This document shows, piece by piece, positions 9-38,502 of a stretch of 64,000 bases of DNA. The position numbers and the translations under genes were made by a program. The DNA lies in the NCBI GenBank assembly GCA_002496015.1, contig DAIF01000004.1, positions 26,196 to 90,195 of the forward strand, in the 5' to 3' direction. The stretch's first letter is position 1. Every line of letters starts with the position of its first letter. Source of the DNA: Candidatus Pacearchaeota archaeon UBA73. Its GTDB lineage: Archaea; Nanobdellota; Nanobdellia; Pacearchaeales; GW2011-AR1. The notes under the pieces were generated by a model that was not told the DNA's origin, ran no database searches, and worked only from the letters and a program-made list of their open reading frames with translations.

Positions 9-2501
9 TTGGAAGAAGAGAAGAAGCGCCGAACAAAAGACCAGATAAGCTCCGAGCCCGGAATAATCGGTGCCGAAATAGTCGAAGAAATGGAAAGGTC
101 ATATATTGACTATGCGATGTCTGTCATTGTTGACCGCGCCCTTCCTTCAGTTGAAGATGGACTCAAGCCTGTCCAGAGAAGAATCCTATATGCAATGCAA
201 ACCGTCGGAGTAGATCATACAAAACCGACGATGAAATCTGCGAGAGTCGTCGGTGATGTCATGGGTAAGTATCATCCGCACGGCGACTCTGCGATTTACG
301 GCGCGATGGTCCGGCTTGCACAGTCGTTTTCGCTCAGATATCCATTAGTTCACGGTCAGGGTAATTTTGGAAGTATGGACGGCGACTCTGCGGCAGCAAT
401 GCGTTATACAGAAGCAAAACTAAGCAAAATCTCATCCGAACTCTTAGGAGATTTGGATAAAGAGACAGTGAATATGATACCTAACTTCGATAATACCCTA
501 AAGGAGCCAGAGACTCTCCCTGCAAAACTTCCAAATCTTTTGTTAAATGGTGCTACAGGCATCGCAGTGGGAATGGCAACCAACATCCCGCCCCACAATC
601 TGACCGAGTTGTGCGATGCAATAATCGAATACATCAACAAACCAAATGTAACTGCAGAAGAGTTGGCAGAAATTGTAACTGGTCCGGACTTCCCAACCGG
701 CGGTGTCGCCTCCGGTCCCGGCATAAAAGAAATGTACAAAACCGGTAAGGGTAGAATTGTAATGCGTGCCACTCACACAACCGAAGAGCATAAAGGTAAG
801 GAATCAATCATCGTGACGGAAATTCCCTATATGGTTAACAAGGCAGAACTAATCAAAGATATCGCTCGCCTCGTAACTGAAAAGAAACTCCCTGACATCG
901 CAGACTTAAGAGATGAATCCTCAAAAGGAAAAGTCAGAATCGTGATTGAATTAAAAAAAGGCGTGACTCCAAAGTATACGATAAACAAACTCTACAAACT
1001 GACAAACTTACAAACCAATTTTGACGCAAATATAATTGCACTTGTCGGCAAACAGCCAAAGACCCTCAATTTGCGCGATATAATCGAAGAGTATGTAAAA
1101 TATAGAATAATAATCGTGACAAAGAGAAGCAAGTTCGAACTCAAGAAAGCAGAAGACCGGCTGGAAATCGTCCTCGGTTTGCTTAAAGCCCTCAACCAGA
1201 TTGATAAGATAGTGGACTTCATAAAGAAAAGCAAAAACGCGACAGAAGCTCACGAAGGTCTGATGCACAAGTTCGGCTTCACGACCAGACAAGCAAAAGC
1301 GATTCTGGAGACTCGCCTGCAGCAACTCACGTCCTTGGAATCCGAAAAACTTTCAGAGGAAGAAAAGAAACTCAATGAAACCATAGAATACCTTAAGAAA
1401 ATATTGGGCAGCGAACAGGAGATATTGAGAGTTATCAAAAAAGAAGTCACAGATATCAAGAAAGAATACGGTGACAACAGAAAAACAAAAATCTTAAAGA
1501 GAGTAGAAGAACTTTCTGAGAAAGATTTGATTGAGAAAAAAGACGTCGTAGTCACAATCACAAAATCAGAATACATCAAGAGAGTCGACGTTAAATCCTA
1601 CAAAGAACAAAGACGCGGCGGCTCTGGAATGGTCGGAGCCGATCTCAAAGACGAAGATCTCGTCGTGCATTTGCTGACTTGCTCGACTCATGATACCTTG
1701 CTCTTCTTCACAACTCGCGGCAGGGTTTTCTGGCTCAAAGCCAACGACGTCCCGGATGCGACCAGACAAAGCAAGGGACGCGCATTAGCTAATCTTTTCA
1801 ATCTTCGCGAAGAACAGATAGTTGATGTCCGGAACATCAAAAACTTCGAACAAGGTTATCTTTTCTTTGTCACAAAGAAAGGAATTGTCAAGAAACTGCC
1901 TGTGAAAGACGTTGCCAATCCTCGCTCTACCGGAGTAAGGGTGATGAATCTCCCAGCCGACGGCTCGGATTCGATTATTGACGTTAAATATCTGGAAGGT
2001 GGTCAGGAAGTTCTTCTCATAAAGAAAAAAGGAAACGCCGTCCGCTTCAACTCAGATGAAGTAAGGCCGATGGGTAGATCGAGCTATGGGGTAAAAGGTG
2101 CTGAGCTGGATAAGAATGACGAAGTCGTCTCTCTGGAGGTAATCCCCAAGAAAGAAAAAATAACAATTCTAACCATAACCGAATTGGGTTACGGCAAACG
2201 CTCCGATCTTGAAGAATACCGAAAAACGAGCAGGGGCAGCAAGGGTGTAATCAATCTAAAAATTTCCGACAAAACCGGCAATATCGTCCGTTCTCTTTCT
2301 GTTGACGATAAAGATTCGGTAATTGCCACAACAACAAAAGGAACAGTCATAAGGGTTGGAATGAAAGACCTTCGCGTTATGGGCAGGGCGACTCAAGGTG
2401 TCCGCGTCGTCAAAATCAAAGACGGCGACAAAGTCGCAGACATCGTCAAAGTCCCCCACGACGAAGATTTGGAAAAAACAGATTTAAGGGATTTTGCCTA
2501 A
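9..2501 (+). CDS. gyrA: DNA gyrase subunit A. Uses a TTG at 9; the true start may lie upstream of the window.
   Basis: N-terminal [32 protein letters not shown] and [10 protein letters not shown] (active-site Tyr region). C-terminal beta-pinwheel-like repeats. 830 aa. Confidence 0.95.
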
Positions 2502-2735
2502 GCAACTAATAAAGAATCGCCTGCGTTGTAATATAAATCTCGCTCTCTTCTTTGTTCGGGATCAAAAATTGTAACTCTAAATGCATATTTTTCATCTTTT
2601 TCTCTTGCAACTCTTCTGACTTCTCCAGACACAAGCCATTCTAACTCCGATCTAAACCAAAGGCAATTGATCACCAACTTCTAATTTGTCAACAGTTTTG
2701 TATCTCGTCATCTTCCCATTTTTATTATGAACTAA

Positions 2736-3149
2736 TCACCAATAACTCACTCTCGGATAATTGTAATAATTCCCGTAATCATTGCCGTAGTAATTTCCGT
2801 AATTATATCCTCCATAATCATAGTATCCACCATAATATCTGTTGCTGTTATAACCAGGATAATATCCGTAGCCGTAAGGCGTCTGCACTTTTTCTTTAAC
2901 ATAAGTTGTCCGGTCAACCCATGAATTTCCGTTCCAATACCTTGTGCTTACTTTGTCGTAACTTGTCGCAGTAGTCGTTTTCGGGCCATAATAACTGCCG
3001 GTCGTCCTGACATTGTAAGAATAATATGCATCGTAGCTTCCCCCATAATACGGGTCGTAATAACCTCCATAATAAGCCGCCGAACTCAAACTTATCAGTG
3101 CAATTAACAAAAACATTCCAACCGCAAATAATCCGATTGTTTTCTTCAT
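2736..3149 (-). CDS. Small secreted Tyr/Gly-rich low-complexity protein
   Basis: Signal peptide MKKTIGLFAVGMFLLIALISLSSA. The mature part is about 30% Tyr by my count, with YYGGYY, GYGYY and GNYYGNDYGNYY runs. Confidence 0.6.
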   Translation of the reverse strand: MKKTIGLFAVGMFLLIALISLSSAAYYGGYYDPYYGGSYDAYYSYNVRTTGSYYGPKTTTATSYDKVSTRYWNGNSWVDRTTYVKEKVQTPYGYGYYPGYNSNRYYGGYYDYGGYNYGNYYGNDYGNYYNYPRVSYW

Positions 3150-3247
3150 ACGTTTTCTAAAACCAGGAAATATTTAAACTTTTCGTTAATATTATCACTA
3201 ATAAATTACTACATAAAATCAACAACCAAATTGACAGAAGCAATAAA

Positions 3248-3697
3248 TTAAAATCTCCAATTATACGTTCCAGAAGTGTAATCATATCTCGGTTGGTAGT
3301 AATAATATCCATATCCCTTCACATACTCGTTATCAACTCTCGGGTCAAAGGTGGTTTTGTATCTCCAATCAGACGGCTTTGTCTCGCTCTTGTCCCCATA
3401 ATGATAATAAAATGCGTCCCCTGAAGATCTACCAGATTGAATATTATATCTCATGTCGTATGAGTTCGCCTGCCAGACAACTGCTCGGTATCTCTGTGTC
3501 TCTTCCTTCCATCCATCGCCATTCTCCACCCACTGGCAAACTCTGTCTGTTCTCCACTTAAACTCATTATAGTCCCAATATTTGCACGAGCTATCGTAAT
3601 CTCCATAGCTATAAGTTCTGTAAGTATAAGCATCAACACTCTGCAAAGCATTAAGAGCCAACAGCACTGCAAAAACTGATAAAATTATTTTTTTCAT
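3248..3697 (-). CDS. Small secreted Tyr/Trp/Arg-rich protein
   Basis: Signal peptide MKKIILSVFAVLLALNALQSVDA. Aromatic-rich mature region. Start is 1 nt downstream of the preceding ORF's stop (3699). Confidence 0.6.
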   Translation of the reverse strand: MKKIILSVFAVLLALNALQSVDAYTYRTYSYGDYDSSCKYWDYNEFKWRTDRVCQWVENGDGWKEETQRYRAVVWQANSYDMRYNIQSGRSSGDAFYYHYGDKSETKPSDWRYKTTFDPRVDNEYVKGYGYYYYQPRYDYTSGTYNWRF

Positions 3698-4236: not shown

Positions 4237-4262
4237 GCCTGCAATTATAATCTTTTTAACAT

Positions 4263-4334
4263 GCCTCGGTAGTTTAGTGGCTAGAACACGACCCTGTCGC
4301 GGTCGAGGTCCGAGTTCGATTCTCGGTCGGGGCG
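4263..4334 (+). tRNA. tRNA-Asp (GTC)
   Basis: Manual cloverleaf: acceptor GCCTCGG/TCGGGGC (two G-U pairs), D stem GTTT/GAAC, anticodon stem CGACC/GGTCG, loop CTGTCGC, T arm CCGAG-TTCGATT-CTCGG, discriminator G. 72 nt, no encoded CCA. Confidence 0.9.
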
Positions 4335-4378
4335 TAAGTACATTTTGGAATTTCTAAGGGGTGGATTGTGCATAATCG

Positions 4379-4870
4379 GTGTATGAAGTTTATAATTTCC
4401 GCCGAACACCCACAAGAATGAAAATAGATCCATACAGACACAAGGAAAGATATACGGCTTGGAAAGAAAGATCCAAAGAAGGAATTGAAGAGATCTCCAA
4501 GAAAAATTCAGATATAATTTTGAGATATATCATCAATATGGAACATGGAATAAACGTTTCTGTAAAAAGTTCTAAGGGGGCTCGCAGTTATATCCGAATC
4601 AATACTTTGCGAGAAAAAATGGTTTTTTTCGCAAAAAAGTTCAACGAGATTTACAGTCTGGAGGACATTACCGAAATCGATGAAGAAAAGTTGGTCTTGT
4701 TCTTCGCTCAAATGAGAAACGGAGAAATTAAAAGACGAGATGGAAAAACCTATGTGGGCGTTGGAGATTATGTCAAGTGTTTCAAGGCATTTTGGCACTG
4801 GTACCAAAAAATTAGTAAAAAAGAAAGTATTTCCCTGCCTAATAAGGAGATTTACTTCCTCTTTCTCTGA
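4379..4870 (+). pseudogene. Tyrosine-recombinase/integrase remnant (N-terminal SAM-like core-binding domain only)
   Basis: 163-aa ORF directly downstream of the tRNA. The pattern (...TLREKMVFFAKKF...DYVKCFKAFWHWYQK) resembles integrase N-terminal domains. No catalytic R..HxxR..Y domain follows in any frame. Confidence 0.4.
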
Positions 4871-4968: not shown

Positions 4969-5223
4969 TCATCTTACCAATTTCCTATTGCTCCTAACTT
5001 TAGCAACAACTCGGCCATAAGATCTTCCTACTGGCTGTAAACTAACAGTCCTACCTTGAATTTGCCTAGTCAATTTTGCTTTGGCTTCTCTGCCGCCAAA
5101 TTGGTGTAGCTCTGGAACATTCGCGCCGGCAAGTCTAACGAAATTACTTCCGTTTACTTTATGGTACGTTTCAAATGTGTCACCATCCACTACTCTTTTA
5201 ACGGTTCGATGTATTACCATCAT
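4969..5223 (-). CDS. Short thermonuclease (SNase-like) domain protein
   Basis: VVDGDTF...VRLAGANVPE...SYGRVVA matches the SNase motif pattern (DGDT, RL.G.D.PE, ygR). Only 84 aa. Confidence 0.55.
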   Translation of the reverse strand: MMVIHRTVKRVVDGDTFETYHKVNGSNFVRLAGANVPELHQFGGREAKAKLTRQIQGRTVSLQPVGRSYGRVVAKVRSNRKLVR

Positions 5224-5265
5224 GCTGGAAAAATTTTTATAGTTATAAATATTTGTACCTTACAA

Positions 5266-5958
5266 ATGTTACAAAATATACAAAATCAAAGAGTGCACAT
5301 ATTAAGCCCAGGTTTTGAGTTTAATTGGATTATTGAATCATTCAATAAATCAAGACCGGACAAAATTTATCTTATGAGAAAACCAGATAAAAATGAAAAA
5401 GCAGCTAAGGTAATCGAAGAAATAAAAAAATTTGCAAAAAGAACGAATGCAGAATTAGAAATAATAAAATCAGATGGGGATGTATATGATATGATAAAGG
5501 AGACGAAAAGAATTTTTGAATTAGAAAATGGAAACCTAATTTATTTATCCATCTCTTCAGGCGAAAGGGACTATGTGAGCGCGTTTATCTTGGCGTCAAT
5601 GCTTTTTTGTCGCAGTGCTAAAGAAGTCCATTTGTATTCCTTAAAAGAAGGAGAATTTATAGATTTGCCTCACTTCGAAGTGAAACTTCCTAAACCGGAA
5701 GTCATCGAAGCAATAAAATTCGTTGGAGAAAAAAGAAAATGCATTAAGAGAGATTTAAAGAAACATATGTTTGATAATAAACTTTTAGTAGTAGAAAATA
5801 AATCTAAATTTGAAGGACATAATCAATATGTAAAATTAAACAGGTCTGTTTTAGATTCCGCAATAGACTGGGGGTTGATAAAAATTGAAGGTAAACGAAA
5901 GGGCAGCAGGATTTATTTGACCGAAGAGGGAGAGAAGTGGTTTAAAATTTTTAAATAA
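5266..5958 (+). CDS. CARF-like (Csa3/HFX_2341-type) Rossmann domain plus C-terminal winged-helix regulator
   Basis: N-terminus RVHILSPGFEFNWIIESF...IYLSISSGERDYVSAFILASML resembles Csa3/HFX_2341-type ligand-binding domains. The C-terminal basic region is wHTH-like. ATG at 5266 chosen, which avoids overlap with the SNase gene. Confidence 0.5.
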   Translation: MLQNIQNQRVHILSPGFEFNWIIESFNKSRPDKIYLMRKPDKNEKAAKVIEEIKKFAKRTNAELEIIKSDGDVYDMIKETKRIFELENGNLIYLSISSGERDYVSAFILASMLFCRSAKEVHLYSLKEGEFIDLPHFEVKLPKPEVIEAIKFVGEKRKCIKRDLKKHMFDNKLLVVENKSKFEGHNQYVKLNRSVLDSAIDWGLIKIEGKRKGSRIYLTEEGEKWFKIFK

Positions 5959-6012: not shown

Positions 6013-6318
6013 TTACCCTTCAACTTCCTTCCCCTTCCGCTTACACAAAAATAATAAAATTGGCAGAACTTCTCCTTTTTTCTCGAGCTCCGAAAGTTCT
6101 TTTTTTACGTCGCCGTATGTCCTATTCATTACCATAAAATAACCGAAGCTTCCGCGCTTGTCTTTTAGCTGGGGAAACTCCTGTAGAATTTCTTTTTTGA
6201 ATCTGATTACACTCCATGATTGTGCGGACTCGTTATAGAATAAGTTTCCCTTTATTTTGATGGTTTCTTTCCTAGGGGATAGGAAACACAGTTCTCCTTC
6301 GTTTTCTGATTTTTTCAT
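6013..6318 (-). CDS. Hypothetical protein, possible last gene of the nucleotide operon
   Basis: 101-aa ORF 48 nt downstream of the CYTH gene on the same strand. Confidence 0.4.
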   Translation of the reverse strand: MKKSENEGELCFLSPRKETIKIKGNLFYNESAQSWSVIRFKKEILQEFPQLKDKRGSFGYFMVMNRTYGDVKKELSELEKKGEVLPILLFLCKRKGKEVEG

Positions 6319-6366
6319 TCATGCTCCCACCTATTTGCCTAAGGGTTAAGTATAGAATGTATCAGT

Positions 6367-6879
6367 TTATTTTTTGTCGAAAACACTGAACAATTCTTCA
6401 CCTGCTTTTTGGACAGTATCTCCTAATCCGTCAAGAACCTTTTGAATATCCTCGGATGTAGTGCATTCAACTTCTATCATTTCAAGATGAGCTGGTTTTG
6501 AATAAGTTATGAAAACGACTTCAATATTTTCTGCTCTCCAGTAGGAGCGAACGGAAGCGTTTTCTTTTATTATTTTATATCCCGACTTGAGGAGAATCTT
6601 ATGCATGGATTCCATGTCGCCAATTGAGACGTTTATCTCTTCACGGGTCCAGACGTTATTTTCGTCCTGACATTTTCCCTTGAAGGTAAGTTCTATTTTG
6701 TCTCCTTTTTTTCTGATTCGAACAAGCTCGTTCGTGTTTTCCATGCTATCGCCAGTCTGACTGTAATATCTATCACAAAGGTCGATGGTCTCTTCTTTAT
6801 TGAGGCCAAGATCTTCAAGCCTTTTCTCAACTGATTCAGCGTCTTTATAGGTTAATTTTATTTCAATTTCTTGTCCCAT
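6367..6879 (-). CDS. CYTH domain protein (triphosphate tunnel metalloenzyme / class IV adenylate cyclase family)
   Basis: N-terminal EIEIK (ExExK signature). About 170 aa, with the alternating charged beta-strand pattern typical of CYTH. Confidence 0.75.
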   Translation of the reverse strand: MGQEIEIKLTYKDAESVEKRLEDLGLNKEETIDLCDRYYSQTGDSMENTNELVRIRKKGDKIELTFKGKCQDENNVWTREEINVSIGDMESMHKILLKSGYKIIKENASVRSYWRAENIEVVFITYSKPAHLEMIEVECTTSEDIQKVLDGLGDTVQKAGEELFSVFDKK

Positions 6880-6881
6880 AT

Positions 6882-8105
6882 TTACTCCAATCCAACCCCC
6901 ATTTTTATATCTTTTCCTTGCTTTTTACTCTCGAGATATTTTTTTAATACCGGGACACATAGGTTAAAAAATTGCTCTGGTTTTGAAAGAAGGGTTTCCA
7001 ATTCTCTGAGGGAAATCCATTCATGATCCTTAGATTCTGCATTTGAATCATTTAATTTACCGCCAGTAACTCTGCATAAAAATGCTGTGCCGATGTATGC
7101 CCTATCTCCGACTTTCTGTTGAACACAGCAAAAAGGTTCAAAAGCAAGAGAGCTCTTTTTTGAAATCTTGGAAGAAAGTATCTGTGATTCATTTTTTACT
7201 TCAACCTTAAGTCCGGTCTCTTCGCGAATCTCCCTAACGACTGCCTCGAAGGCCATTTCTCTTTTTTCAATTAAACCGCCTGGCAATTCAAGTTTGCCTG
7301 TGTTTTCAAGGTCGATTGCGGGCTTATTTCTTGTCTGAATCAAAATCTCCTCGCCCTTAGCACCTTCTCTTTCAATAATTCCCAATACGACAGGTATGTT
7401 TAAGTTTATCTCGTCATAGTTAACATAGCTTCCAAAACAGGTTCTGTTGTAGCCGTATCTCTTTATCAGGCCGTATGTGTTTTTGCAACCTAATTTGATG
7501 AAGTCAAAATTTTTCACCACTTCAAACACAGTATTCAAATCATCCATGGCCTCTAGCACGCGGCAATTTTCAGGCCCACAGTTTCTTACTAAATCATTGC
7601 ATGATTTATCTGTGCTCCATTCAATTTTTTCAAACAGATTTCTTTTGAACGTTTTTGCTCCAATAAGATAAATCCCCCCATTGTGTTCTGGTCCGACAAC
7701 GAAGTCCCTTTCTTCTAAACCACTAAATGCTTGTGAGACTATTTTTTTAGAAATAAACGGAACATCCATTGGAATTAGAATAACTTTTTCATAGTCTGCC
7801 AAAAGTTTCTCAAATAAACCGCTCATCTTTTCACTTAATGCTTTCTTCCATTCCACAGATTTTGATTCTACAGTGAGGCCCTCTAATCCATATGCAAACA
7901 TGAAATTCTTCAATTCATCTTCCGTATCTGTACCAACCAATACATTATAATCTTTAGAACCTGAAAGATTTTCTACGACATCTCTCATGCAGGCCTTGCT
8001 GAATTCAAATGCAAACTCTTGGGAGGTCTCTGCAGCAATTCTACTTTTAGTTTTTCCAACTTCAGGCCACTTTGCCAAGATAACTAACGCATTTTTAGGA
8101 TTCAT
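6882..8105 (-). CDS. Fusion of a DUF2064-like (MobA/CofC-like GT-A fold) domain and a NUDIX hydrolase
   Basis: N-terminus ALVILAKWPEVGKTKSRIA (DUF2064-like). C-terminal canonical Nudix box GLIEKREMAFEAVVREIREETGL. Start set at ATG 8105, preceded by GGAGGGAAA. Confidence 0.75.
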   Translation of the reverse strand: MNPKNALVILAKWPEVGKTKSRIAAETSQEFAFEFSKACMRDVVENLSGSKDYNVLVGTDTEDELKNFMFAYGLEGLTVESKSVEWKKALSEKMSGLFEKLLADYEKVILIPMDVPFISKKIVSQAFSGLEERDFVVGPEHNGGIYLIGAKTFKRNLFEKIEWSTDKSCNDLVRNCGPENCRVLEAMDDLNTVFEVVKNFDFIKLGCKNTYGLIKRYGYNRTCFGSYVNYDEINLNIPVVLGIIEREGAKGEEILIQTRNKPAIDLENTGKLELPGGLIEKREMAFEAVVREIREETGLKVEVKNESQILSSKISKKSSLAFEPFCCVQQKVGDRAYIGTAFLCRVTGGKLNDSNAESKDHEWISLRELETLLSKPEQFFNLCVPVLKKYLESKKQGKDIKMGVGLE

Positions 8106-9084
8106 TTTCCCTCCAGTATGTAACACTTTGTCCTGGCGCTGTTTGAAGAAAATCTCTTGCTTGCGCAATTGCATTTAAAATTCCGCCCCGATCTCCGTCA
8201 CTGATTAAACTCGCTAACGGGATCGAATGGTCGCTTGCATGACAGGGTTTTATTTCTAATTGAGGCGTAATGAAAGTTTCATTGGATTTGTAACATGCTC
8301 TGCATACTTCTTCTCGCCCACATCCAATATCAACATAAACTCCTCTGGCAGAACCATACCTTAGTGGAACTGCAGGGAGATAATCAGACTGCCCCCTAAA
8401 TATTTTTTGCTCGTCTTCCTCTAAACAGCCAACGGCCTTTAGCCTTTCAACTATGTCTCTTGATTCTACAACTCGCGCCCCGTGCTCCTCAGTTACTGGT
8501 TCAAATTGTAGAAATTTAAACCTAAAGTCATATCGGTCACATAGTTCAAGAATCCCCTTCATCGAACCATCATCGAGATTATATCCATTTACTGGAACAC
8601 TTTTTATCTCGACTCTTCTACCAAGGCCAGATTCTCCTAAAATGTTCAAGTTACGATTGAGTTTTTCCCATTGTCTATGTGTGCCACCAGTCATTCTTGA
8701 CCAATTATCAAAATCAGTTGTGTGTAAAGAAACCCCTATTTTTGTGAACTCCCCTAGTCCACTTCGTAAAATTTCTTCATCAAGCTCGACTCCGTTCGAA
8801 TGAAAGAATCTTTTTTGAAATCTTAACCTGTTAGCTTCTCTAACAATTCTTCCTATATCTGGATGTAGTGTAGGTTCTCCCCCAGTAATGCTGACGTTTG
8901 ATAAACCGTGTTCTCTTAAAACTTCTAACAGGTAAACTGCTTGATCAACATTTATGTGGGTAGTATTCCTCTGTTCTTCATCCATCCCTTCATTGCTGCA
9001 GAAAAAACAATCAAGATTGCAATAATCTGTTACTGAGAGCCTGATTGGAAACCTGTCTAAAATTTGGGTTATTGGCAGCCTCAT
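8095..9084 (-). CDS. Radical SAM enzyme, MoaA-like (paralogue B)
   Basis: RLSVTDYCNLDCFFCSNEG (CxxxCxxC), ITGGEPTLHPD, FKFLQFEP, C-terminal CGREEVCRACY...KPC (auxiliary cluster). AGGAGG upstream. ATGA overlap with the upstream gene. Confidence 0.85.
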   Translation of the reverse strand: MRLPITQILDRFPIRLSVTDYCNLDCFFCSNEGMDEEQRNTTHINVDQAVYLLEVLREHGLSNVSITGGEPTLHPDIGRIVREANRLRFQKRFFHSNGVELDEEILRSGLGEFTKIGVSLHTTDFDNWSRMTGGTHRQWEKLNRNLNILGESGLGRRVEIKSVPVNGYNLDDGSMKGILELCDRYDFRFKFLQFEPVTEEHGARVVESRDIVERLKAVGCLEEDEQKIFRGQSDYLPAVPLRYGSARGVYVDIGCGREEVCRACYKSNETFITPQLEIKPCHASDHSIPLASLISDGDRGGILNAIAQARDFLQTAPGQSVTYWRENES

Positions 9085-10241
9085 AATTGAACCTCCTGTT
9101 CAGGCTCCTTATTCCAGCCGACAGTGCCAAGTCCTGGAGCCAACATAAGATACTCCCGCGAAGCCTTAAAGAGGGCGAATAGCTGACCCATGTCCCTATT
9201 TCGGATCGCAGGCGTTAGATCAATTCGAGTATTCGTGACAGAACAAGGTTTTAGATATAGCCCTCTGCCATCTTCATCAGATTTGACAAACATACAAAGA
9301 TAATCGTAACACGCTCTGCAAGCCCCCTCTTTCCCACATCCAAACATACTTTGTAATCCTCTAATCCCCTTATAATCAAATGTAACATTCGGAATGTACT
9401 TTCTTTCGTCTTCATCACTTAATAGGGCAGAATCAAATTCACACCCAAGACCTGCGAGTTTTTCAAATAGTTCTTTTCTTGGAACCTCCAAGATTTTTTG
9501 AGAAGGATATTGAGCTTCGAACTGTAGGAATTTCGGATGGAATCCATATTGAGCACAGGTGCCCAAAAAATCTCCGAGGTCCGTTTCTGAATCATTTATT
9601 CCTCGCATAATAACCGATTTTAAGAATACTCTGTCTGAAATTCCCCTGCCTCCAAGATAGTCTAGATTGGCAAGCAACGCGTCAAATTTCTTTCTCTGTA
9701 CATCTTCCGCAAAACATCCTCGTGGATTTGTGACTCTATTCCAGGTCTCAAAATTAGTGCTATTAAGAGTTATACCTATTCTTGAAAAAGTTCTCTGTAT
9801 CTGATCAGTTACCTGGGGGGTTAGAAGTATTCCATTAGTGTGAATAGAAAAGTGAGTTTCAGGATGCGTTTGTGTCCATTCTACCAACTTATAATCTCCT
9901 TGTCTAAAATCTGGATGAAGCAAGGGTTCACCACCGCTGAGATCTATGTTTTGCAAGGGTGTATTTTCTAGGAGCATGTCGGATAAATCAATAACTAAAC
10001 TCAAATCTGCCGGCTTATTGTTTCTTGACTTGTAATCTCCGCCTTCGTTTGAACAGTAACCACAGAACAGATTACATTGAGGCGTAAGACTCATCCTCAG
10101 TCTGTTTTTTCTGAACAATCCATTCATTTCTTCATCGGTTAAAGTCGTTCTACCTGTTCTAGTGATTGCTCTCTCTGAGAGATCGTAATATTCTCCGTCT
10201 TTATTTCTTCTAACGGTATGATCTGCTTCGTTGGTATCCAT
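9081..10241 (-). CDS. Radical SAM enzyme, MoaA-like (paralogue A)
   Basis: SLTPQCNLFCGYCSNEG, LSGGEPLLHPD, PKFLQFEA, C-terminal CGKEGACRACY...KPC. Same architecture as paralogue B with a longer N-terminus. Confidence 0.85.
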   Translation of the reverse strand: MDTNEADHTVRRNKDGEYYDLSERAITRTGRTTLTDEEMNGLFRKNRLRMSLTPQCNLFCGYCSNEGGDYKSRNNKPADLSLVIDLSDMLLENTPLQNIDLSGGEPLLHPDFRQGDYKLVEWTQTHPETHFSIHTNGILLTPQVTDQIQRTFSRIGITLNSTNFETWNRVTNPRGCFAEDVQRKKFDALLANLDYLGGRGISDRVFLKSVIMRGINDSETDLGDFLGTCAQYGFHPKFLQFEAQYPSQKILEVPRKELFEKLAGLGCEFDSALLSDEDERKYIPNVTFDYKGIRGLQSMFGCGKEGACRACYDYLCMFVKSDEDGRGLYLKPCSVTNTRIDLTPAIRNRDMGQLFALFKASREYLMLAPGLGTVGWNKEPEQEVQL

Positions 10242-10827
10242 TTCGGTGCATCCTCCTTAAGATTAAGGTACTATTTTGATCGAAATTATTGGTTCCGTCT
10301 ACTACTGTCAACCCGCTGGCGTTTTGAATTTCTCGGTATAGGGGAACAAGGGCCTTCAGCTCATCTGCCTCTTCAACACTCAATCCACCGTTCAAATGCG
10401 AATTGTCAAGACCCAGTCTAGCTTGTTCAGCGAGTCTAGCCAAAGAGACTTCTTCTGGAACAATAAATAAAAAGAAGTTACCTGTAACCTGAATGCCTGT
10501 TTCTGTGGCGTCCAGAATAGCAGCGTATTGTTCTTCCGAAAGAGCGCCCCTGCCAAAATCAAATCTCGCAAGGGTCTGCCTGTCTAAGAACCCTCTGTCC
10601 AACAAAATGTGGTCTCTATGTGTATTGGCGGCTATCTGACTAGAAAAGTGCTCAGCTAAAGACATGTGGAAATCATATAAAGAGGGGTAGTCTGAAAAAG
10701 GCACATCGGGTCTGTGTATTGTGACGACATCATAGCCTTGGCTAGTCAACCTTTTCTCAGTATTCCTTATTTGAGAAGTTTTTCCCGCTCTGGAAACCCC
10801 CAAAAACTCCACTAATTTCATAAACAC
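10210..10827 (-). CDS. P-loop nucleoside/nucleotide kinase-like protein (dNK/TMPK-like)
   Basis: Walker A GVSRAGKTS near the N-terminus, LLDRGFLDR (DR motif), about 200 aa. The start could instead be the M at 10821. Confidence 0.7.
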   Translation of the reverse strand: MFMKLVEFLGVSRAGKTSQIRNTEKRLTSQGYDVVTIHRPDVPFSDYPSLYDFHMSLAEHFSSQIAANTHRDHILLDRGFLDRQTLARFDFGRGALSEEQYAAILDATETGIQVTGNFFLFIVPEEVSLARLAEQARLGLDNSHLNGGLSVEEADELKALVPLYREIQNASGLTVVDGTNNFDQNSTLILRRMHRNGYQRSRSYR

Positions 10828-10906
10828 CGTTAATTCGGAGATTATTTATATATTTAGGAAATATATACAAACATTTAAATAAAAGTAAATACGTCTATAT
10901 ACAATT
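10828..10906. promoter_or_regulatory. Divergent promoter region between the kinase operon and the PhoU-like gene
   Basis: 79-nt very AT-rich spacer with several TATA-like elements (TTTATATAT, AAATATATAC, TTTAAATAAAAG). Confidence 0.3.
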
Positions 10907-12855: not shown

Positions 12856-15800
12856 CTACACATTTATTTCCGTAACTCCTTCCCACGATAAAGATACATC
12901 TCCAACAGCAACGCCAGTAGAACGATTAAGCTGCCATGCGACTAATTGCCCTTTCTCGACGAATATCTCATCAACAACATTCTCACAAGTATCCGGAACC
13001 GTCGAACTCAACGAACAACCAAAAGTAGTTGATTGATTATTTACCCATAAAATCATTTGAATTGCAATCGCTCCGGTTCCTTTATAGGCCCATAGATTCT
13101 TGAAGGTCATATTCATGGGCATCCTGATTGCTCTGTCATAGAAGTCTACATTTGGCGCCGAATCCCCGAAGAAACTAATAAATCCTGCGGCTCCGATAGT
13201 TCCTCCCGAATATCCGGTTGTGAATAGTTGAGAATAATTCCGTGTGCCGCCGCCTCCACCACTTGTGAGAAAATCGGCAAGAGGGTAACATGCTGTTGCA
13301 TTACACCATTGGTCAGCGTCGGATCTAATACTATCCACAGCACGGATATTCCCATTCACATCAAGGGTATATTCTGGAACATATGTACCAATTCCCACTT
13401 GTTTTGCTCCAATATCTACAGATAATGTCGGAGGCTCAGGGCTGGATAAAGTCCCACCCATAGTCACAAACCAACCATTTGCATCTGTATAAAAAAACGG
13501 CTCATCAAAACTATTACCCCAAATGCCCACATCCAAATCGTTCATTTTAGAGTTGATTCTGAAAGCAGTTGCTTGTATTGGCGGAAATACTGTAGTCGGA
13601 GCTATCTCTAAATCTAGTGTATATTCGGAAGTATTTGAAACAAAGCTAAATCGCGGCGTTCCAATCGACGGAAGGGAATAACCAAAACCTAGTCTAGTAT
13701 TGTCCGGAATTGCAGTATTCCCTTTTAACCAAATTAAATATGAAGGGTCTACACTAAGTCCCAAGTTGTTATTTATTACACTAAAATCAAATGAATTAGG
13801 CGCTGAGATAGTATTAAAACTAATCGTTGATATTACATCTCCGTTGCGAAAAAAGTTAAATTTTCCGCTTAGATTAATATTGCCCAAGGAAACAATGTCG
13901 TTCTCGCTCATATTGACATTTACTAATGCAGGATAAAGGGACCAGTCAGCAGGAGATGTAATAAAGCCCTGAGAATCTATATAATCTATCGCTGGTTGAG
14001 TTTGATTGTAAGAATAAGTGTCATAGGTAGAGTTAAACGTTGAAAACCACAAAGTTCTGTTAGACAACACATCAAGATAAGTGTCATGGTAAGTTTGATT
14101 AAAGGTGCCACTAGCGACGGTTTCGCATGACAAGACGCTTCCGTCGAATGTGAGATATTGATTTGCCGAGCAGGATGGAATATTGGAGATATTCTGATAT
14201 TTTATTATTACTGAATCATCAGCAATGGAAGTTAAAAACCCCTGTGGATTTAATGAAATTCTATGGTCAATCGTAAGATTATTTTTCGTGCTATTAAAGA
14301 AAACCCTTGTTCCGTTGTCAAACAAATAATCGCCATCAGTATCGATTAAACCAATGGTATTCGTGTCTATCAATGTGCAAAGATTGGAAGTAGTGCCGGT
14401 TATATTTGAGCAATGGACTAGTGTTTGATTTTCCAGTGGCAAGTCTGCGATATATAAGATTAAAGAAGAATTGGCAGTCCAAAGGGGGTCAGTTTCATTG
14501 TAGGAAGTCAGATAGCCCTGTGAATCTACGTAGTTGATTGCTTCTGTTGTATGATTATACCAAAACTCTCTGCCTGCTAAATCGTTCGTAAAGTTTGAAA
14601 GATGAGTATAGATTATTCCATCATCAGCCCAATCATCTTCATTATCTAGGATATACTGCCAGAGAGATGAATTGACATTCAATATTAAAAGGGTATCATT
14701 ATAAATAGACGCAGATGTGTCATTGATAAAATTCAAAGGATTTGTAATGGAATAATATAATGTGTCTGCTAAAGATTGGTTAAACGAGGAATTGCCGGGC
14801 GTTATAGAGTCATAAGTTTCATTGTAGGTTGAGAGCCATGCGGGAGTATTAGATATAATATGATTCCATAGCGTAGAATTAACATCTAAGATAAGTATGG
14901 TGTCGTTGAAGACTTGACCTTGAGTGAGATTGATGAAATTCGATGGATTTGTGATGGAGTAGTAAAGTGTATCAGTTAAAGACTGGTTAAACGTGGAATT
15001 ATCTGCATCGATTCCGGCGATTAAGCCCTGAATTTCAGTTTGATTGTAAAATCCAAGAGCCATAATATTTGATGAGCGATTTACAGACAAAATTAAAGCT
15101 GTTTCGTTGTAGCGTTGGTCTGATGTGTCCAACTTGTCGTTTATTGCAGCCCATAAAGTAGAATTTTCAGTTAAAAATACCGGGTCTAATTCAGTGTAAG
15201 AAGTTAGATAATTTTGAGAAAGAACCCAATCTGTGTCATTATAACGTTGGTCTGTTATGTCTAGTTTTCTTATTTCTAAATCTGTATAGTTTGCTTCTAT
15301 CTCGTTTCGCAGAGTCGATTCTGATTCCGTTCTATTTCCGACTATGGCTGTCCAAACAGGCGGACCGGTTATATAGTTTTGTGAGAGCACCCAATCTGTG
15401 TCATTATAACGTTGGTCGGATTTATCTAATTTCAAGTTGTCCAAATGTGTCGCATTAGCAATGACAACGCTGTCGGTGTATTGTTCTAATTCAGTTTTAT
15501 TGCCGGCAATCATCTGATAAATTATAACGCCGGTAAGGTAATCTCCAAGAGGTTGATAAATCAAGTCTAACCATGATTTCAACGAGACAGTGTTAAGAGA
15601 AAATGTCTGTCCAATAAGGGTCAGATTTGAACCGGCAATATATGTGTAAAGGGCATCTGTCAAGGTTTGATTAAACGTAGAGTTATAAGATATTTTGGAA
15701 TCGTAAGTAGAATTGTATGTCGAAAACCAACTAGAACGATTTGCGCTGACATCCATGCTTGTTGCATGATAAGAAGCATTGTAAGTTCCGATTTCCCCTA

Positions 15801-17835
15801 TTTGGTCTTCAACACAACTTAAAGTTGCCCCGTCAAAAGTTAAGATTTCATTAGCTGCGCAAGTAGGTATATTAGTTATGTTCTGATATTTTATTATCAC
15901 GCCGTCAATCCCTAATGATTCGTAGGAAGAATTATAGGTCGAGAGCCATGCAGACATATTGCCGGAGATTGCAGCCATCGCGACCGGATCGGTTTCTTCA
16001 TAGGATGTCAAAAATTCCTGCGAGTTAACATAATCAATCGCAGACTGAGTCTGATTATAACCCCAGATTATTGAAGAATAAAGAGTGTCTGTTAATGATT
16101 GGTTAAAGCTTGAATTTCCTGGTTCAATCTCCAAAATAAAATTATCAATCTCACTTCTATTATATACTTCATCTTTTGTATAAAAAATATCCTTAAACAA
16201 TTCTAAGAAATATTCAAATAAATCCGTAGTGTTTCTGCCATCGAGATGATTGGAATTATTTACAGAGCTTCCCGATAAATCAAGATTTGTCTCATTAAAA
16301 TAATTATGTGGATTTTCATTTAGAGGATAATACAAACTATCTGTCAGGGATTGATTAAAAGAGGAGTTAATTACAGAAGACAAAACAGAATCAATATCCG
16401 TTATATTGTAATAATTGTCAAACATTAATTCGATTTCTTCTAAAATAGAATCTATTTCAGTTTGATTATAATATTGTGAAAGCAACGCAATAACTTGGGT
16501 TTGATTGTAAAATGTCTGATTAATCCAGCTATCGTCATAACTTTCATTGAGATAATTGAGAGGATTTTCATTTAGAGGATAGTAAAGAGAATCTGCTAAT
16601 GTTTGATTAAAAGAGGAGTTAATTATAGAAGATAAGAAATAATCTATTTCGCTTTGATTATAATAATTGTCAAACATTAATTCGATTTCTTCTAAAATAG
16701 AATCTATTTCGGTCTGATTGTAATATTGTGAAAGTAACGCAATAACTTGAGTTTGATTGTAAAATGTTTGGTTAATCCAACTATCGTCATAAGGTGTTAT
16801 AACAAGGTCGTTCGTAAAATTAGAAAGATGAGTATAGGGGAAATTTGTCGAGTTGTAATATCCGGACGGATTCGTAGCAAGATAATAATCTCCTTTAGCT
16901 AAATCCCAGTCTGACTCTAGCAAATAATCGTCTATATCGAAGTCAGATGAATTGTAATAATTAAACCCAAGGATTTCTAATTTGTTGAAAAATGTCTGAT
17001 TAATCCACGCGTCATCATACACCGTTGTTTCATTTATGAAACCGTAAGGGTTACTTAATGGATAATAAATAGTATCAGCCAAACTCTGATTCCATGACAA
17101 ATTCATCCTAGAATCCAACAATTCATCCACATCCGTTTTATTGTAATAGTCAGATAAATCTACTTCGCTAGTAGGCAACCCAGTTAACAAACTTCCGTCC
17201 CCGATGAAATAACTCGCAGTTACATTTCCCGAGACATCTATATCCTGAACGAATAGCTTTGTTATTCTGCTCGTGATACTTCCGAGGAATTCAAAAAAAC
17301 CAGTCCCTGCAGCGGTGATGTTCCCTTCAAAAATTTCTGATTGATTTTTTAATGCATAATCTGCAAGATCGGCTTCTCCTCCACCAACTGCAATGCACTC
17401 AACGCTTCCGTCTTCATTAACGATTCTAACCGCATATCCTTCAGCACAACTCTGTATCAGTGAAAAGTTAAAGAATGACGCGTCATTTATCAGCCCCAAC
17501 GGCGACTGAAATTCAATTCTTTCATTTCCATTAAAGTCTAGATCATCCCCGTTTATTTCATAATCTTTCCAATAATATTTTCCATACTCTAAGTCTGGAT
17601 TAATCATCAGATTCCACGAACCGTTTACTATTGCATTCTGAACTGTTAAATCAAAAAGAGGGTTTCCTCCTATAGGAGAATCGTATATCCTAATGGTCAA
17701 GTCTCCCACTTCAAGCCGTTCTTGTGTTGAGATGTCTTTCACGTCAGTCCCCTGATCTGAAATTAAAACAGCAGACGCTAAACTAGAAAAAATTATAATT
17801 GCCAAGACAACCGTAACGAACTTACCCCTCACCAT
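12856..17835 (-). CDS. Giant secreted/surface repeat protein (1659 aa), N-glycosylation-sequon-rich, adhesin/S-layer-like
   Basis: N-terminal signal/anchor MVRGKFVTVVLAIIIFSSLASA. Asn/Tyr/Ser/Thr-rich. Many N-x-S/T sequons. Several internal repeat families. No C-terminal TM segment. Confidence 0.85.
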   Translation of the reverse strand: MVRGKFVTVVLAIIIFSSLASAVLISDQGTDVKDISTQERLEVGDLTIRIYDSPIGGNPLFDLTVQNAIVNGSWNLMINPDLEYGKYYWKDYEINGDDLDFNGNERIEFQSPLGLINDASFFNFSLIQSCAEGYAVRIVNEDGSVECIAVGGGEADLADYALKNQSEIFEGNITAAGTGFFEFLGSITSRITKLFVQDIDVSGNVTASYFIGDGSLLTGLPTSEVDLSDYYNKTDVDELLDSRMNLSWNQSLADTIYYPLSNPYGFINETTVYDDAWINQTFFNKLEILGFNYYNSSDFDIDDYLLESDWDLAKGDYYLATNPSGYYNSTNFPYTHLSNFTNDLVITPYDDSWINQTFYNQTQVIALLSQYYNQTEIDSILEEIELMFDNYYNQSEIDYFLSSIINSSFNQTLADSLYYPLNENPLNYLNESYDDSWINQTFYNQTQVIALLSQYYNQTEIDSILEEIELMFDNYYNITDIDSVLSSVINSSFNQSLTDSLYYPLNENPHNYFNETNLDLSGSSVNNSNHLDGRNTTDLFEYFLELFKDIFYTKDEVYNRSEIDNFILEIEPGNSSFNQSLTDTLYSSIIWGYNQTQSAIDYVNSQEFLTSYEETDPVAMAAISGNMSAWLSTYNSSYESLGIDGVIIKYQNITNIPTCAANEILTFDGATLSCVEDQIGEIGTYNASYHATSMDVSANRSSWFSTYNSTYDSKISYNSTFNQTLTDALYTYIAGSNLTLIGQTFSLNTVSLKSWLDLIYQPLGDYLTGVIIYQMIAGNKTELEQYTDSVVIANATHLDNLKLDKSDQRYNDTDWVLSQNYITGPPVWTAIVGNRTESESTLRNEIEANYTDLEIRKLDITDQRYNDTDWVLSQNYLTSYTELDPVFLTENSTLWAAINDKLDTSDQRYNETALILSVNRSSNIMALGFYNQTEIQGLIAGIDADNSTFNQSLTDTLYYSITNPSNFINLTQGQVFNDTILILDVNSTLWNHIISNTPAWLSTYNETYDSITPGNSSFNQSLADTLYYSITNPLNFINDTSASIYNDTLLILNVNSSLWQYILDNEDDWADDGIIYTHLSNFTNDLAGREFWYNHTTEAINYVDSQGYLTSYNETDPLWTANSSLILYIADLPLENQTLVHCSNITGTTSNLCTLIDTNTIGLIDTDGDYLFDNGTRVFFNSTKNNLTIDHRISLNPQGFLTSIADDSVIIKYQNISNIPSCSANQYLTFDGSVLSCETVASGTFNQTYHDTYLDVLSNRTLWFSTFNSTYDTYSYNQTQPAIDYIDSQGFITSPADWSLYPALVNVNMSENDIVSLGNINLSGKFNFFRNGDVISTISFNTISAPNSFDFSVINNNLGLSVDPSYLIWLKGNTAIPDNTRLGFGYSLPSIGTPRFSFVSNTSEYTLDLEIAPTTVFPPIQATAFRINSKMNDLDVGIWGNSFDEPFFYTDANGWFVTMGGTLSSPEPPTLSVDIGAKQVGIGTYVPEYTLDVNGNIRAVDSIRSDADQWCNATACYPLADFLTSGGGGGTRNYSQLFTTGYSGGTIGAAGFISFFGDSAPNVDFYDRAIRMPMNMTFKNLWAYKGTGAIAIQMILWVNNQSTTFGCSLSSTVPDTCENVVDEIFVEKGQLVAWQLNRSTGVAVGDVSLSWEGVTEINV
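16285..16788 (-). repeat. Two tandem 252-bp (84-aa) repeats inside the giant gene
   Basis: DDSWINQTFYNQTQVIALLSQYYNQTEIDSILEEIELMFDNYYN is identical in both copies. The DNA copies differ at synonymous sites, e.g. CAATATTATAATCAAACT versus CAATATTACAATCAGACC. Confidence 0.9.
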
Positions 17836-36034: not shown

Positions 36035-36089
36035 AAGTAAGGAGATTACATTTAAAAAGATTATTCATTTACAAAAACAGCATATTCAA

Positions 36090-38331: not shown

Positions 38332-38502
38332 TGCTCCTACCGGGAGTCGAACCCGGGCCTCCGCCGTTCTCCATTACCTCGATTTGAGGCAATGTTAAGT
38401 AAAACAATGCCTGTCCTAGAGAGGACTGAAGTTATCATCTTTGACGACATAAACTTCGGCCATTCGAGAGGGCGACGTCCTTAACCACTAGACTATAGGA
38501 GC
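38332..38502 (-). tRNA. tRNA-Glu (CTC) with a 98-nt intron (38367-38464) at position 37/38
   Basis: Exon 1 is GCTCCTA-TA-GTCT-AGTGGTTAA-GGAC-G-TCGCC-CTCTCG. Exon 2 is C-GGCGG-AGGC-CCGGG-TTCGACT-CCCGG-TAGGAGC-A. Perfect acceptor and T stems. A relaxed bulge-helix-bulge can be drawn (CTCT/GGAG helix flanked by the 3-nt bulges CGA and AAC). Confidence 0.75.

Follow-up and report, generated by a model that had tools for sequence, protein, structure and literature searches.

A mobile radical-SAM gene cassette shared by DPANN archaea and CPR bacteria as a candidate nucleotide-modifying pathway

Which molecule might an archaeal cell produce by means of two MoaA-like radical S-adenosylmethionine (radical-SAM) enzymes if no further gene of molybdenum cofactor (Moco) synthesis accompanies them? 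This question is raised by an operon on contig DAIF01000004.1 of Candidatus Pacearchaeota archaeon UBA73, situated within a stretch of 64,000 nucleotides which was analysed at its full length and is referred to as the window. An earlier reading of the bare letters, termed the sequence-only reading in the following, had described five, perhaps six, tightly packed minus-strand genes for a nucleotide kinase, two radical-SAM paralogues (rSAM-A and rSAM-B), a DUF2064/NUDIX fusion and a CYTH protein, and had proposed them to form an uncharacterised modified-nucleotide system. We find that these genes belong to a cassette of up to eight genes, all parts of which are united in the window (Table 1). 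Judging from the families and folds of the encoded proteins, the cassette very probably specifies a dedicated nucleotide-modifying pathway which is distinct from Moco synthesis.

The radical-SAM pair and its enzymatic partners

Among the named models of NCBIfam, MoaA scores best for both radical-SAM proteins, followed by viperin. The scores against the MoaA models, however, amount to 73 and 105 bits at cutoffs of 231 to 325 bits (TIGR02666, with a cutoff of 284, TIGR02668 and NF001199), and those against the viperin model NF038283 to 49 and 54 bits at a cutoff of 180; the prokaryotic viperin (pVip) entry of PADLOC matches with 50-60 bits and covers part of the protein. Seen from the other side, true MoaA proteins reach about 100-130 bits against a profile of the rSAM-B family, the members of which exceed 200 bits. 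This family is discrete, comprising about 57 clusters at 40-70% identity, after which a steep drop leads to true MoaA at E 1e-12. It is rare, too, since a hidden Markov model (HMM) search of 1.84 billion representative proteins returned just 30 at E<=1e-30, about 11 of them above 200 bits. The same ranking emerges at the level of the fold. For the AlphaFold (AF2) model of rSAM-B, which has a mean predicted local distance difference test (pLDDT) score of 90.5, MoaA is found as a full-length match with a template modelling (TM) score of 0.71 (E 1e-14), ahead of the viperins, whose CTP- or UTP-bound structures attain a TM score of 0.62 if normalised to the query and of 0.70 if normalised to the target. 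Likewise, comparison of the rSAM-B family profile with the PDB gives 2e-17 for MoaA and 1e-13 to 1e-11 for viperin-like enzymes. One further hit was PDB entry 8WM2, labelled "Fe-S radical SAM", for which the literature yielded unrelated papers only.

The motifs for both iron-sulphur (Fe-S) clusters are present in the two paralogues. The CX3CX2C signature of the SAM-binding cluster is invariant in both families, reading CNLFCGYC in rSAM-A and CNLDCFFC in rSAM-B, and GGEP is kept in rSAM-A. An alignment with a bona fide MoaA (P0062) reveals that all three cysteines which ligate its auxiliary cluster, namely C255, C258 and C272, are invariant in both paralogue families as well, which share a fourth conserved cysteine (in GCG) in addition to the three of MoaA. 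Yet, the Arg-pair segment that follows CxxC in MoaA is replaced, C-N-R-L-R-L-T of P0062 corresponding to C-Y-K-S-N-E-T in rSAM-B and to C-Y-D-Y-L-C-M in rSAM-A. We take this pair to be the GTP-contacting R266/R268 of the Staphylococcus aureus enzyme, which are mutated in the triple mutant of PDB entry 2FB2. The C-terminal Gly-Gly of MoaA is absent from rSAM-A and rSAM-B, both of which end about ten residues past a PG...W motif, and Pfam detects Mob_synth_C (PF06463) in neither protein. rSAM-A is further distinguished by an N-terminal extension of about 45 residues and by one more cysteine (CY...C.F.K). Because the auxiliary-cluster cysteines are kept but the Arg pair is replaced and the Gly-Gly tail gone, the alignment identifies rSAM-A and rSAM-B as predicted MoaA-fold two-cluster enzymes which possess a re-modelled substrate pocket and are not MoaA. 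They constitute a sharply separated branch of the MoaA/viperin group.

These observations bear directly on the simplest explanation of the locus, ordinary Moco synthesis with two copies of the GTP 3',8-cyclase MoaA. It would account for MoaA being the best-scoring named family and for the label "cyclic pyranopterin phosphate synthase" which some databases attach to the homologues. It is contradicted by scores far below the MoaA cutoffs in one direction and below those of the family members in the other, as well as by the missing Mob_synth_C domain, Arg pair and Gly-Gly tail. Moreover, moaC, moaD/E, moeA and mogA were all missing from the 40 scanned open reading frames (ORFs) of the window, from the related loci with annotation and from the top families of the flanks. 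The verdict of the sequence-only reading against molybdopterin synthesis thus holds, and we assign next to no likelihood to this explanation.

As a separate observation, the rSAM-B profile matches five large proteins of 895-1927 amino acids (P0091, P0093-P0095 and P0097) in three to four stretches each. They look like fusions of several radical-SAM units.

Domain searches with Pfam and NCBIfam support all of the earlier domain calls (two Radical_SAM proteins, DUF2064 plus NUDIX, and CYTH), and the family and fold assignments agree with the claim that every component handles nucleotides or phosphates. Taken as a single sequence, the kinase gives a sub-threshold match to the P-loop region of Thymidylate_kin in Pfam, while its family profile finds thymidylate kinases (about 1e-6) and the deoxynucleoside kinases dAK/dCK and dGK (1e-4) in the PDB. 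Against the dTMP kinase model TIGR00041, which has a cutoff of 83 bits, the window kinase scores 20 bits; a relation to thymidylate kinase (TMPK) is indicated by these profiles at the level of the fold only. In the loci of bacteria of the candidate phyla radiation (CPR) the window-type kinase is replaced by a different TMPK-like family, designated kinase2. With 24-43 bits against the same model, its identification as the housekeeping kinase Tmk was rejected. Since the kinase step is filled by two non-orthologous TMPK-like families, it appears to be essential.

The N-terminal half of the fusion protein is assigned to DUF2064 (PF09837) with 6.9e-18 and 65 bits at a cutoff of 25.8; Pfam additionally reports a CofC signal (1.9e-8), and TIGR04282 matches with 108 bits, below its cutoff of 134. 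Its nearest PDB entry is 3CGX (2e-11). The C-terminal half, whose nearest PDB relatives are MutT/NUDIX proteins, matches PF00293 with 2.8e-13 and contains a Nudix box, GGLIEKREMAFEAVVREIREETGL, which conforms to the pattern GX5EX7REUXEEXGU. Fusion may go further in individual loci. In L052, one ORF (1977-3500) which runs to the contig end comprises DUF2064 (residues 5-224), NUDIX (231-405) and the start of kinase2 (432-507, with VDGPDGSGKG). It is a genuine triple fusion or else the result of a frameshift in the assembly. The kinase gene of L043 and L045 is read in a different frame and overlaps the fusion gene at its end.

For the separation of cyclases from triphosphatases among CYTH proteins we relied on the signatures published in the study of the triphosphatase SaTTM, according to which class IV cyclases exhibit HFxxxxExExK, carry a small residue where xxRxR has its first Arg, and show ExA on strand beta-8 (PMC8233210). 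In the cassette family the HF motif occurs in 0 of 32 sequences, ExExK in 28, and both RxR and ExE in all 32; the corresponding residues of the window protein read EIEIK, LVRIR and EVE. The nearest solved relative is SaTTM of Sulfolobus itself (7NS8). Since the HF motif is lacking and RxR and ExE are kept throughout, the cassette CYTH protein is, by its signature residues, predicted to be a triphosphatase-type triphosphate tunnel metalloenzyme (TTM). The signature test contradicts the NCBIfam label "class IV adenylate cyclase" (TIGR00318, 62 bits at a cutoff of 58), and a class IV cyclase (CyaB) was ruled out despite the database label "cyaB". The suggestion of the sequence-only reading that the product might be cyclised is hence abandoned.

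Gene order, distribution and additional partners of the cassette

All minus-strand ORF coordinates given earlier were reproduced by the ORF list, and so was the tight packing of the genes. The kinase and rSAM-A genes overlap by 32 nucleotides, the rSAM-A and rSAM-B genes share ATGA (9081-9084), and 2 nucleotides separate the NUDIX stop from the CYTH start. The assumed start of the fusion gene at ATG 8105, which leads to an overlap of 11 nucleotides with the rSAM-B gene, is preceded by GGAGGG at a distance of 4 nucleotides and agrees with the starts of the orthologues. Judged by its orthologues, the kinase probably starts at ATG 10821 (MKLVEFLG) rather than at GTG 10827. The translations contain every motif that had been quoted, that is, the Walker A motif GVSRAGKTS, CNLFCGYCSNEG, CNLDCFFCSNEG, GGEPLLHPD/GGEPTLHPD, FLQFE and EIEIK, together with the C-terminal GCG....CRACY...KPC and the canonical Nudix box. 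Within the window there is neither a second copy of any cassette component nor a further radical-SAM gene.

Table 1. Cassette features in the window (TMPK, thymidylate kinase)
Feature	Position	Strand	Remarks
orf101	6013-6318	-	small conserved protein; last gene of the archaeal-type cassette; motif FPQLK[ED]KR
CYTH protein (triphosphate tunnel metalloenzyme)	6367-6879	-	CYTH in Pfam, 2.8e-14
DUF2064-NUDIX fusion	6882-8174	-	likely start ATG 8105
rSAM-B	8095-9084	-	Radical_SAM; core enzyme; motifs for N-terminal SAM cluster and C-terminal auxiliary cluster
rSAM-A	9081-10241	-	Radical_SAM in Pfam, 3.2e-17; paralogue of rSAM-B
Kinase	10210-10827	-	first gene of the operon; P-loop; TMPK/deoxynucleoside-kinase fold
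AT-rich intergenic spacer, ~80 bp	10828-10906		presumed shared promoter/operator, to judge from its position only
AbrB/SpoVT-type DNA-binding protein, 306 aa	10907-11827	+	divergent; helical C-terminal part of ~250 aa
Gre-factor paralogue, 166 aa	11811-12311	-	GreA-like full-length architecture; altered coiled-coil tip

To follow the gene order beyond the window, loci were collected from species-representative genomes, metagenomes and the contigs of individual homologues, and their ORFs were labelled with HMMs built from the window proteins. This yielded 50 loci which are non-redundant at 95% rSAM-B identity, 14 of them with full flanks. The gene order, whose conservation the sequence-only reading had left to be checked, recurs in these 50 loci and is not due to chance. 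DUF2064 lies 3' of rSAM-B in 40 of the 40 loci with enough sequence, and rSAM-A lies 5' of it in 32 of 39. Of the 14 loci with full flanks, 12 contain CYTH, 11 a kinase of either type, 8 the NUDIX fusion and 5 orf101. The fusion of DUF2064 with NUDIX is confined to loci containing rSAM-A (8/10 versus 0/4). Pairwise distances of the components correlate with those of rSAM-B (r=0.86 for rSAM-A, 0.79 for CYTH, 0.72 for the Gre-like protein and 0.65 for DUF2064), which argues for inheritance as a unit.

Four recurrent arrangements of this unit can be distinguished. The CPR type reads A-B-DUF2064::NUDIX-kinase2-CYTH-Gre-like, where CYTH is encoded on the opposite strand. The archaeal type with rSAM-A, [Gre-like]-AbrB(divergent)-kinase-A-B-DUF2064(+/-NUDIX)-CYTH-orf101, is represented by the window, L028, L031-L033 and L036. 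The archaeal type without rSAM-A reads AbrB(divergent)-B-DUF2064-kinase-CYTH-orf101, and a second archaeal type A-B-DUF2064::NUDIX-kinase-CYTH-Gre-like. A complete core cassette lacking both rSAM-A and the Gre-like gene is found in six loci. The archaeal carriers which bear a name are Pacearchaeota, Woesearchaeota and Nanoarchaeota, the bacterial ones Falkowbacteria, Buchananbacteria, Saccharibacteria and Patescibacteria; some labels of third-party assemblies, such as "Gammaproteobacteria", are probably unreliable. The cassette is confined to DPANN archaea and CPR/Patescibacteria and has crossed the boundary between the two domains as a unit. It is horizontally mobile, and in L028, which stems from a close relative of the window organism, it is located between sulfate-activation genes and Rhs/Tc toxin genes, a site wholly unlike that in the window. 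Since the family is rare and patchily distributed across domains, an accessory or conflict function would fit.

The operon had been taken to consist of five genes with a possible sixth. The five genes stand and the sixth ORF, orf101, proved to be conserved, but the unit is larger, an AbrB-type regulator and a Gre-factor paralogue being partners as well. The Gre paralogue matches GreA_GreB in Pfam (7.8e-12), and its residues 5-152 align to positions 2-149 of the 151 positions of TIGR01462, the score of 53.7 bits lying below the cutoff of 139. Where canonical GreA displays the tip sequence D-L-S-E-N-A-E-Y, the window protein reads E-T-W-H-D-N; across the family the tip is D-x-W-H-D-(E/N), conserved at >=80%. 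Eight of the 14 full-flank loci have such a gene next to the cassette, and its occurrence follows that of rSAM-A (8/10 with rSAM-A, 0/4 without; Fisher p=0.015). The closest homologues of the window protein that could be looked up (3/3) all adjoin the same cassette. A housekeeping GreA was considered and ruled out, since the tip is distinct and L017 holds a canonical GreA in addition to the paralogue. In the window, the Gre paralogue is encoded on the same contig as the genes of an RNA polymerase of the Rpb1/Rpb2 type (44703-51384), an uncommon setting for a bacterial-type Gre homologue. Archaea normally use TFS instead of Gre factors, and no paper linking GreA to DPANN lineages was found in the literature.

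The coupling of the altered tip to rSAM-A gives rise to a reading in which the cassette modifies a macromolecule, be it a nucleoside of tRNA or rRNA or an amino acid in the Gre-like tip (W-H-D) itself, by analogy with the modified tips of EF-P, eIF5A and EF-2. An invariant Trp-His-Asp tip that strictly accompanies rSAM-A would befit an enzyme-substrate pair, and rSAM-B shows secondary matches to the tRNA-modifying TYW1. MoaA and viperin, however, give stronger matches than TYW1, whose matches extend over part of the barrel only. The core cassette is complete without rSAM-A or the Gre-like gene in the six loci mentioned above, and partners such as the kinase, the Nudix domain and the TTM point to free nucleotides. 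We give this reading very little credence.

The AbrB-type gene is present in 6 of the 14 loci with full flanks and invariably accompanies the archaeal-type kinase (p=0.005). All five family members (5/5) possess the MazE/AbrB N-terminal domain. For the C-terminal part, a profile search of the PDB gave no match and a PhoU-like signal is faint (E 0.08). The protein is presumed to regulate the operon in archaeal-type cassettes. Homologues of orf101 follow CYTH in L009, L012, L022, L028, L031, L033 and L036; that of L004 is situated nearby. Pfam gave no match for orf101, a word-index search few homologues, and the AF2 model (pLDDT 46) proved unusable. As an observation apart from the cassette, L030 contains a homologue (5526-5828, 76% identical) which stands alone and is divergent from an operon encoding a HAD protein, a protein without assignment, a B12-binding radical-SAM protein and a nucleoside 2-deoxyribosyltransferase. 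The protein may be a small adaptor or regulator common to different nucleoside-modifying radical-SAM operons.

With a Gre-like factor and an AbrB-type DNA-binding protein as conserved non-enzymatic partners, the cassette could also be thought to produce and degrade a nucleotide second messenger or alarmone which, in analogy to ppGpp and DksA, would reprogramme transcription through the Gre-like secondary-channel factor in the versions with rSAM-A and through the AbrB-type regulator in the archaeal ones. Kinase, Nudix and triphosphatase are typical enzymes of signalling-nucleotide turnover, and upstream of the Falkowbacteria cassette of L003 (3041-6153) we find genes for NUDIX, MazG, HD_4 (a SpoT-like HD domain), DHH/DHHA2 and a second NUDIX protein. 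Against this idea, the published signatures exclude the CYTH protein from the cyclases, the CARF gene next to the cassette in the window is not conserved elsewhere, and radical-SAM chemistry consumes one SAM per turnover; to our knowledge, there is no precedent for such chemistry in messenger synthesis. We accord it little credence.

Genomic surroundings and further features of the window

The 148 genes flanking the cassette in about 20 loci belong mainly to housekeeping functions such as PheRS, rRNA dimethylase, Fe-S assembly (which flanks the cassette of L001) and the cell envelope. Type I restriction-modification (R-M) genes or AbiEi were found in few loci only when these genes were scanned with PADLOC and Pfam. 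Stand-alone NUDIX genes account for 8 of the 148, and CobC-like His_Phos_1 phosphatases as well as a PHP nucleotidase resembling 3',5'-bisphosphate phosphatase recur. No conserved client enzyme was found in any cassette flank.

In the window, the operon had been thought to sit within a tRNA-flanked island beside a CARF-like regulator and a nuclease. This context applies to the window alone, and the island could not be upheld; the second tRNA is located about 40 kb away. The G+C content is just slightly lower over 4-12 kb. The call of a CARF regulator is sound; neither it nor the nuclease fragment, however, recurs in any other locus. The CARF protein combines its CARF domain with a winged helix-turn-helix (CARF-wHTH; 5161-5958, plus strand) and is of the HFX_2341/CARF3 type (PADLOC CARF3, 1.2e-26); no CRISPR-cas genes are seen nearby. 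A Cas4-like PD-(D/E)XK nuclease is encoded at 56381-57217, far from the CARF gene. Behind tRNA-Asp (4262-4335) lies an ORF which has no Pfam match (4379-4870, plus strand), followed by an 84-residue fragment with weak similarity to thermonuclease (4969-5223, minus strand; E 5e-4). Both could be remnants of an integrated element, though no match supports this.

Further observations concern the remainder of the window. Its RNA polymerase comprises subunits of the Rpb1 and Rpb2 type, domains 4 and 5 of Rpb2 being present, and a homologue of EF-G with the size of aEF-2 is encoded as well. Rpb1 domains 1-5 are contained in one ORF of 1144 amino acids (44703-48137, minus strand) which appears to be fused and is rather short; most archaea have it divided into A' and A''. 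Rfam reports a tRNA of 171 nucleotides at 38332-38502 on the minus strand (model positions 1-71), presumably containing an intron, that is not reported by ARAGORN. Together with the polymerase subunits and the EF-G homologue, it identifies the window as archaeal. A DisA-like diadenylate cyclase (DAC plus DisA-linker; 36021-37157, plus strand) suggests c-di-AMP signalling. Finally, a protein of 1659 amino acids (12856-17835, minus strand) has a hydrophobic segment in its N-terminal part, numerous N-x-S/T sequons and long internal repeats; YDDSWINQTFYNQTQVIALLSQYYNQTEIDSILEEIELMFDNYYN, for instance, occurs twice. It has no Pfam match and, going by these features, is probably a glycosylated surface protein.

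Predicted pathway and comparison with known systems

According to the explanation we favour, the cassette is self-contained and would turn an ordinary nucleotide into a modified nucleotide or nucleoside. The TMPK-fold kinase would supply the substrate nucleotide or hold it at the di- or triphosphate level. rSAM-B would bind this nucleotide, and a 5'-deoxyadenosyl radical would abstract a hydrogen from its ribose, upon which the nucleotide would be rearranged or dehydrated. Where present, rSAM-A might catalyse a second radical step or form a heterodimer with rSAM-B. The DUF2064 protein, as a putative nucleotidyl- or glycosyl-transferase, could either build a substrate linked to a nucleoside diphosphate or conjugate the product. 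Pyro- or triphosphate would be stripped by the TTM triphosphatase and the MutT-like Nudix domain, which may be assisted in some loci by a PHP nucleotidase or a CobC-like histidine phosphatase. This trimming would either mature the product or prevent it from accumulating in the producer. In the archaeal versions the AbrB-type regulator would control the operon from the divergent promoter. The Gre paralogue, which travels with rSAM-A only, would tie the product of the A-dependent step to RNA polymerase. In the biological reading we prefer, the product would be an antimetabolite resembling those of viperin or oxetanocin synthesis, i.e. a chain-terminating or polymerase-blocking analogue directed against viruses or employed in symbiont-host conflict, and the Gre-like factor could serve self-rescue by excising the analogue from stalled transcripts of the producer itself.

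The individual parts of this explanation deserve different degrees of trust. That the product acts on or through transcription has, in our view, just short of an even chance. The explanation as a whole we put forward tentatively and with clearly less than even confidence. An antimetabolite or defence role with self-rescue by the Gre-type factor seems rather unlikely. That a mobile CPR/DPANN cassette makes a nucleotide analogue directed at RNA polymerase, its own Gre-family factor protecting or modulating the polymerase of the producer, is a decidedly unlikely, if far-reaching, version of it.

A number of points weigh against the favoured explanation. The analysis establishes a conserved, mobile and co-evolving gene set, the fold and family of each component and the retained motifs of both Fe-S clusters, from which every catalytic step is inferred. 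An auxiliary cluster is absent from viperins, in contrast to the rSAM-A/B family, which keeps that of MoaA. A dedicated regulator and the strict pairing with a protein related to CofC and MobA would rather be expected in an operon for metabolism or cofactor synthesis. As a class of cassettes without rSAM-A and without the Gre-like gene exists, the core function does not need the link to transcription, and the engagement of an archaeal RNA polymerase by a Gre-type protein is hypothetical. Because the flanks are mostly housekeeping genes and few loci adjoin R-M systems, there is no defence-island signal. In addition, comparison of the cassette proteins with known defence systems gave nothing but weak matches to pVip, PDC-S07 and generic CARF models. 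The viral contigs of IMG/VR do not contain the family and yielded only two distant partial matches at 29% identity.

Several of these points lead to the main rival of the favoured explanation, a pathway to a cofactor or metabolite which follows the logic of Moco or F420 synthesis. Here, the radical-SAM enzymes would rearrange a purine nucleotide, TTM and Nudix would remove polyphosphate in a MoaC-like manner, and DUF2064 would add a nucleotide handle to give a dinucleotide-type cofactor for an enzyme encoded elsewhere. A MoaA fold with an intact MoaA-type auxiliary cluster would suit this chemistry, as would the invariable adjacency of rSAM-B and DUF2064 (40/40) in conjunction with the kinship of the latter to CofC and MobA. 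Two paralogous radical-SAM proteins next to a CofC-like gene recall CofG, CofH and CofC. The housekeeping flanks, including Fe-S assembly in L001, the dedicated regulator and the CobC-like phosphatase of some loci fit as well. On the other hand, extreme rarity (30 representatives at E<=1e-30 in 1.84e9) and patchy distribution are hardly expected of a cofactor pathway, the flanks provide no conserved client enzyme, and the cassette moves between sites and between domains. Furthermore, a MutT-like Nudix domain fused to the transferase would undo nucleotidyl transfer, and the Gre paralogue travelling with rSAM-A is left unexplained. We therefore regard the cofactor pathway as unlikely.

The radical-SAM pair probably represents new enzymology, consisting of A/B paralogues with an altered pocket around a retained auxiliary cluster. 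The MoaA/viperin group performs unusual chemistry on nucleotide sugars and supplies both the precursor of an essential cofactor and chain terminators which act as natural antivirals. A third radical-SAM branch within a conserved pathway of kinase, transferase, Nudix and triphosphatase leads one to expect a new molecule derived from a nucleotide. The carriers are ultra-small CPR and DPANN organisms which depend on partner cells for nucleotides. The presence of the Gre paralogue and an archaeal RNA polymerase on one contig raises the alternative of a secondary-channel factor in archaea versus a role independent of RNA polymerase. Should the product be an RNA-polymerase-directed analogue, the cassette would contain a Gre-type secondary-channel factor that is the first to operate in Archaea, and ultra-small symbionts would possess a new class of conflict system based on nucleotides; were it an antimetabolite, it would add a new member to the natural nucleoside analogues and might serve as a polymerase inhibitor.

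The sequence-only reading did not recognise the gene combination as a described system, and targeted literature searches, including the literature on MoaA-like and viperin defence systems, found no description of it. It is nonetheless composed of parts that can be compared with established ones. With MoaA, the best full-length structural match, rSAM-A and rSAM-B share the CX3CX2C cluster and the same three auxiliary cysteines. They differ from it in occurring as a paralogue pair, in the extra conserved cysteine and in the lack of MoaC, MoaD/E and MoeA partners. The viperins, as the second-best match, are radical-SAM enzymes acting on the ribose of nucleoside triphosphates and likewise show a patchy spread across domains. 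Their genetic partners include kinases of the NMP-kinase superfamily and, in occasional cases, a triphosphatase/cyclase domain (10.1101/2023.09.13.557418). The partners of rSAM-B parallel this repertoire, a TMPK-fold kinase being present in 11 of the 14 loci with full flanks and a triphosphatase-type CYTH protein in 12. What sets the cassette apart from viperin systems is the addition of DUF2064, Nudix, a regulator and a Gre-like factor as well as the lack of a defence-island context.

A similar order of steps is known from the biosynthesis of the nucleoside antimetabolite oxetanocin A, in which OxsB alters the sugar moiety of a purine (deoxy)nucleotide in its phosphorylated form before the phosphohydrolase OxsA trims the phosphates. 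OxsB is a B12-dependent radical-SAM enzyme and OxsA an HD-domain enzyme, neither of which is homologous to a cassette component. The strict pairing of a radical-SAM protein with a member of the same Pfam family as the cassette DUF2064 is encountered again in the arsenosugar cassette of ArsS (DUF2064/TIGR04282). In the present cassette, however, the radical-SAM proteins are MoaA-like and not ArsS-like, the TIGR04282 score stays below the cutoff and most loci exhibit the Nudix fusion. Like the CofC/MobA group, its DUF2064 protein displays the fold of nucleotide-diphospho-sugar transferases (3CGX). The CYTH protein resembles the TTM of the SaTTM type, its nearest solved relative, in that ExExK, RxR and ExE are all present in the window sequence. 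With the Gre family (GreA/GreB, Gfh1 and Rnk) the cassette paralogue shares the N-terminal coiled coil and the GreA_GreB C-terminal domain in an end-to-end alignment; it departs from the family in the catalytic tip, where D-x-x-E-N-A-E-Y is changed to D-x-W-H-D-(E/N), and in its occurrence also in archaeal genomes. All component folds are already known, and the logic of a radical-SAM enzyme that modifies a nucleoside triphosphate in company with a kinase is known from viperin. New are the radical-SAM subfamily occurring as an A/B pair, its strict association with both DUF2064, with or without Nudix, and a TTM triphosphatase, and a dedicated Gre paralogue which crosses the boundary between bacteria and archaea.

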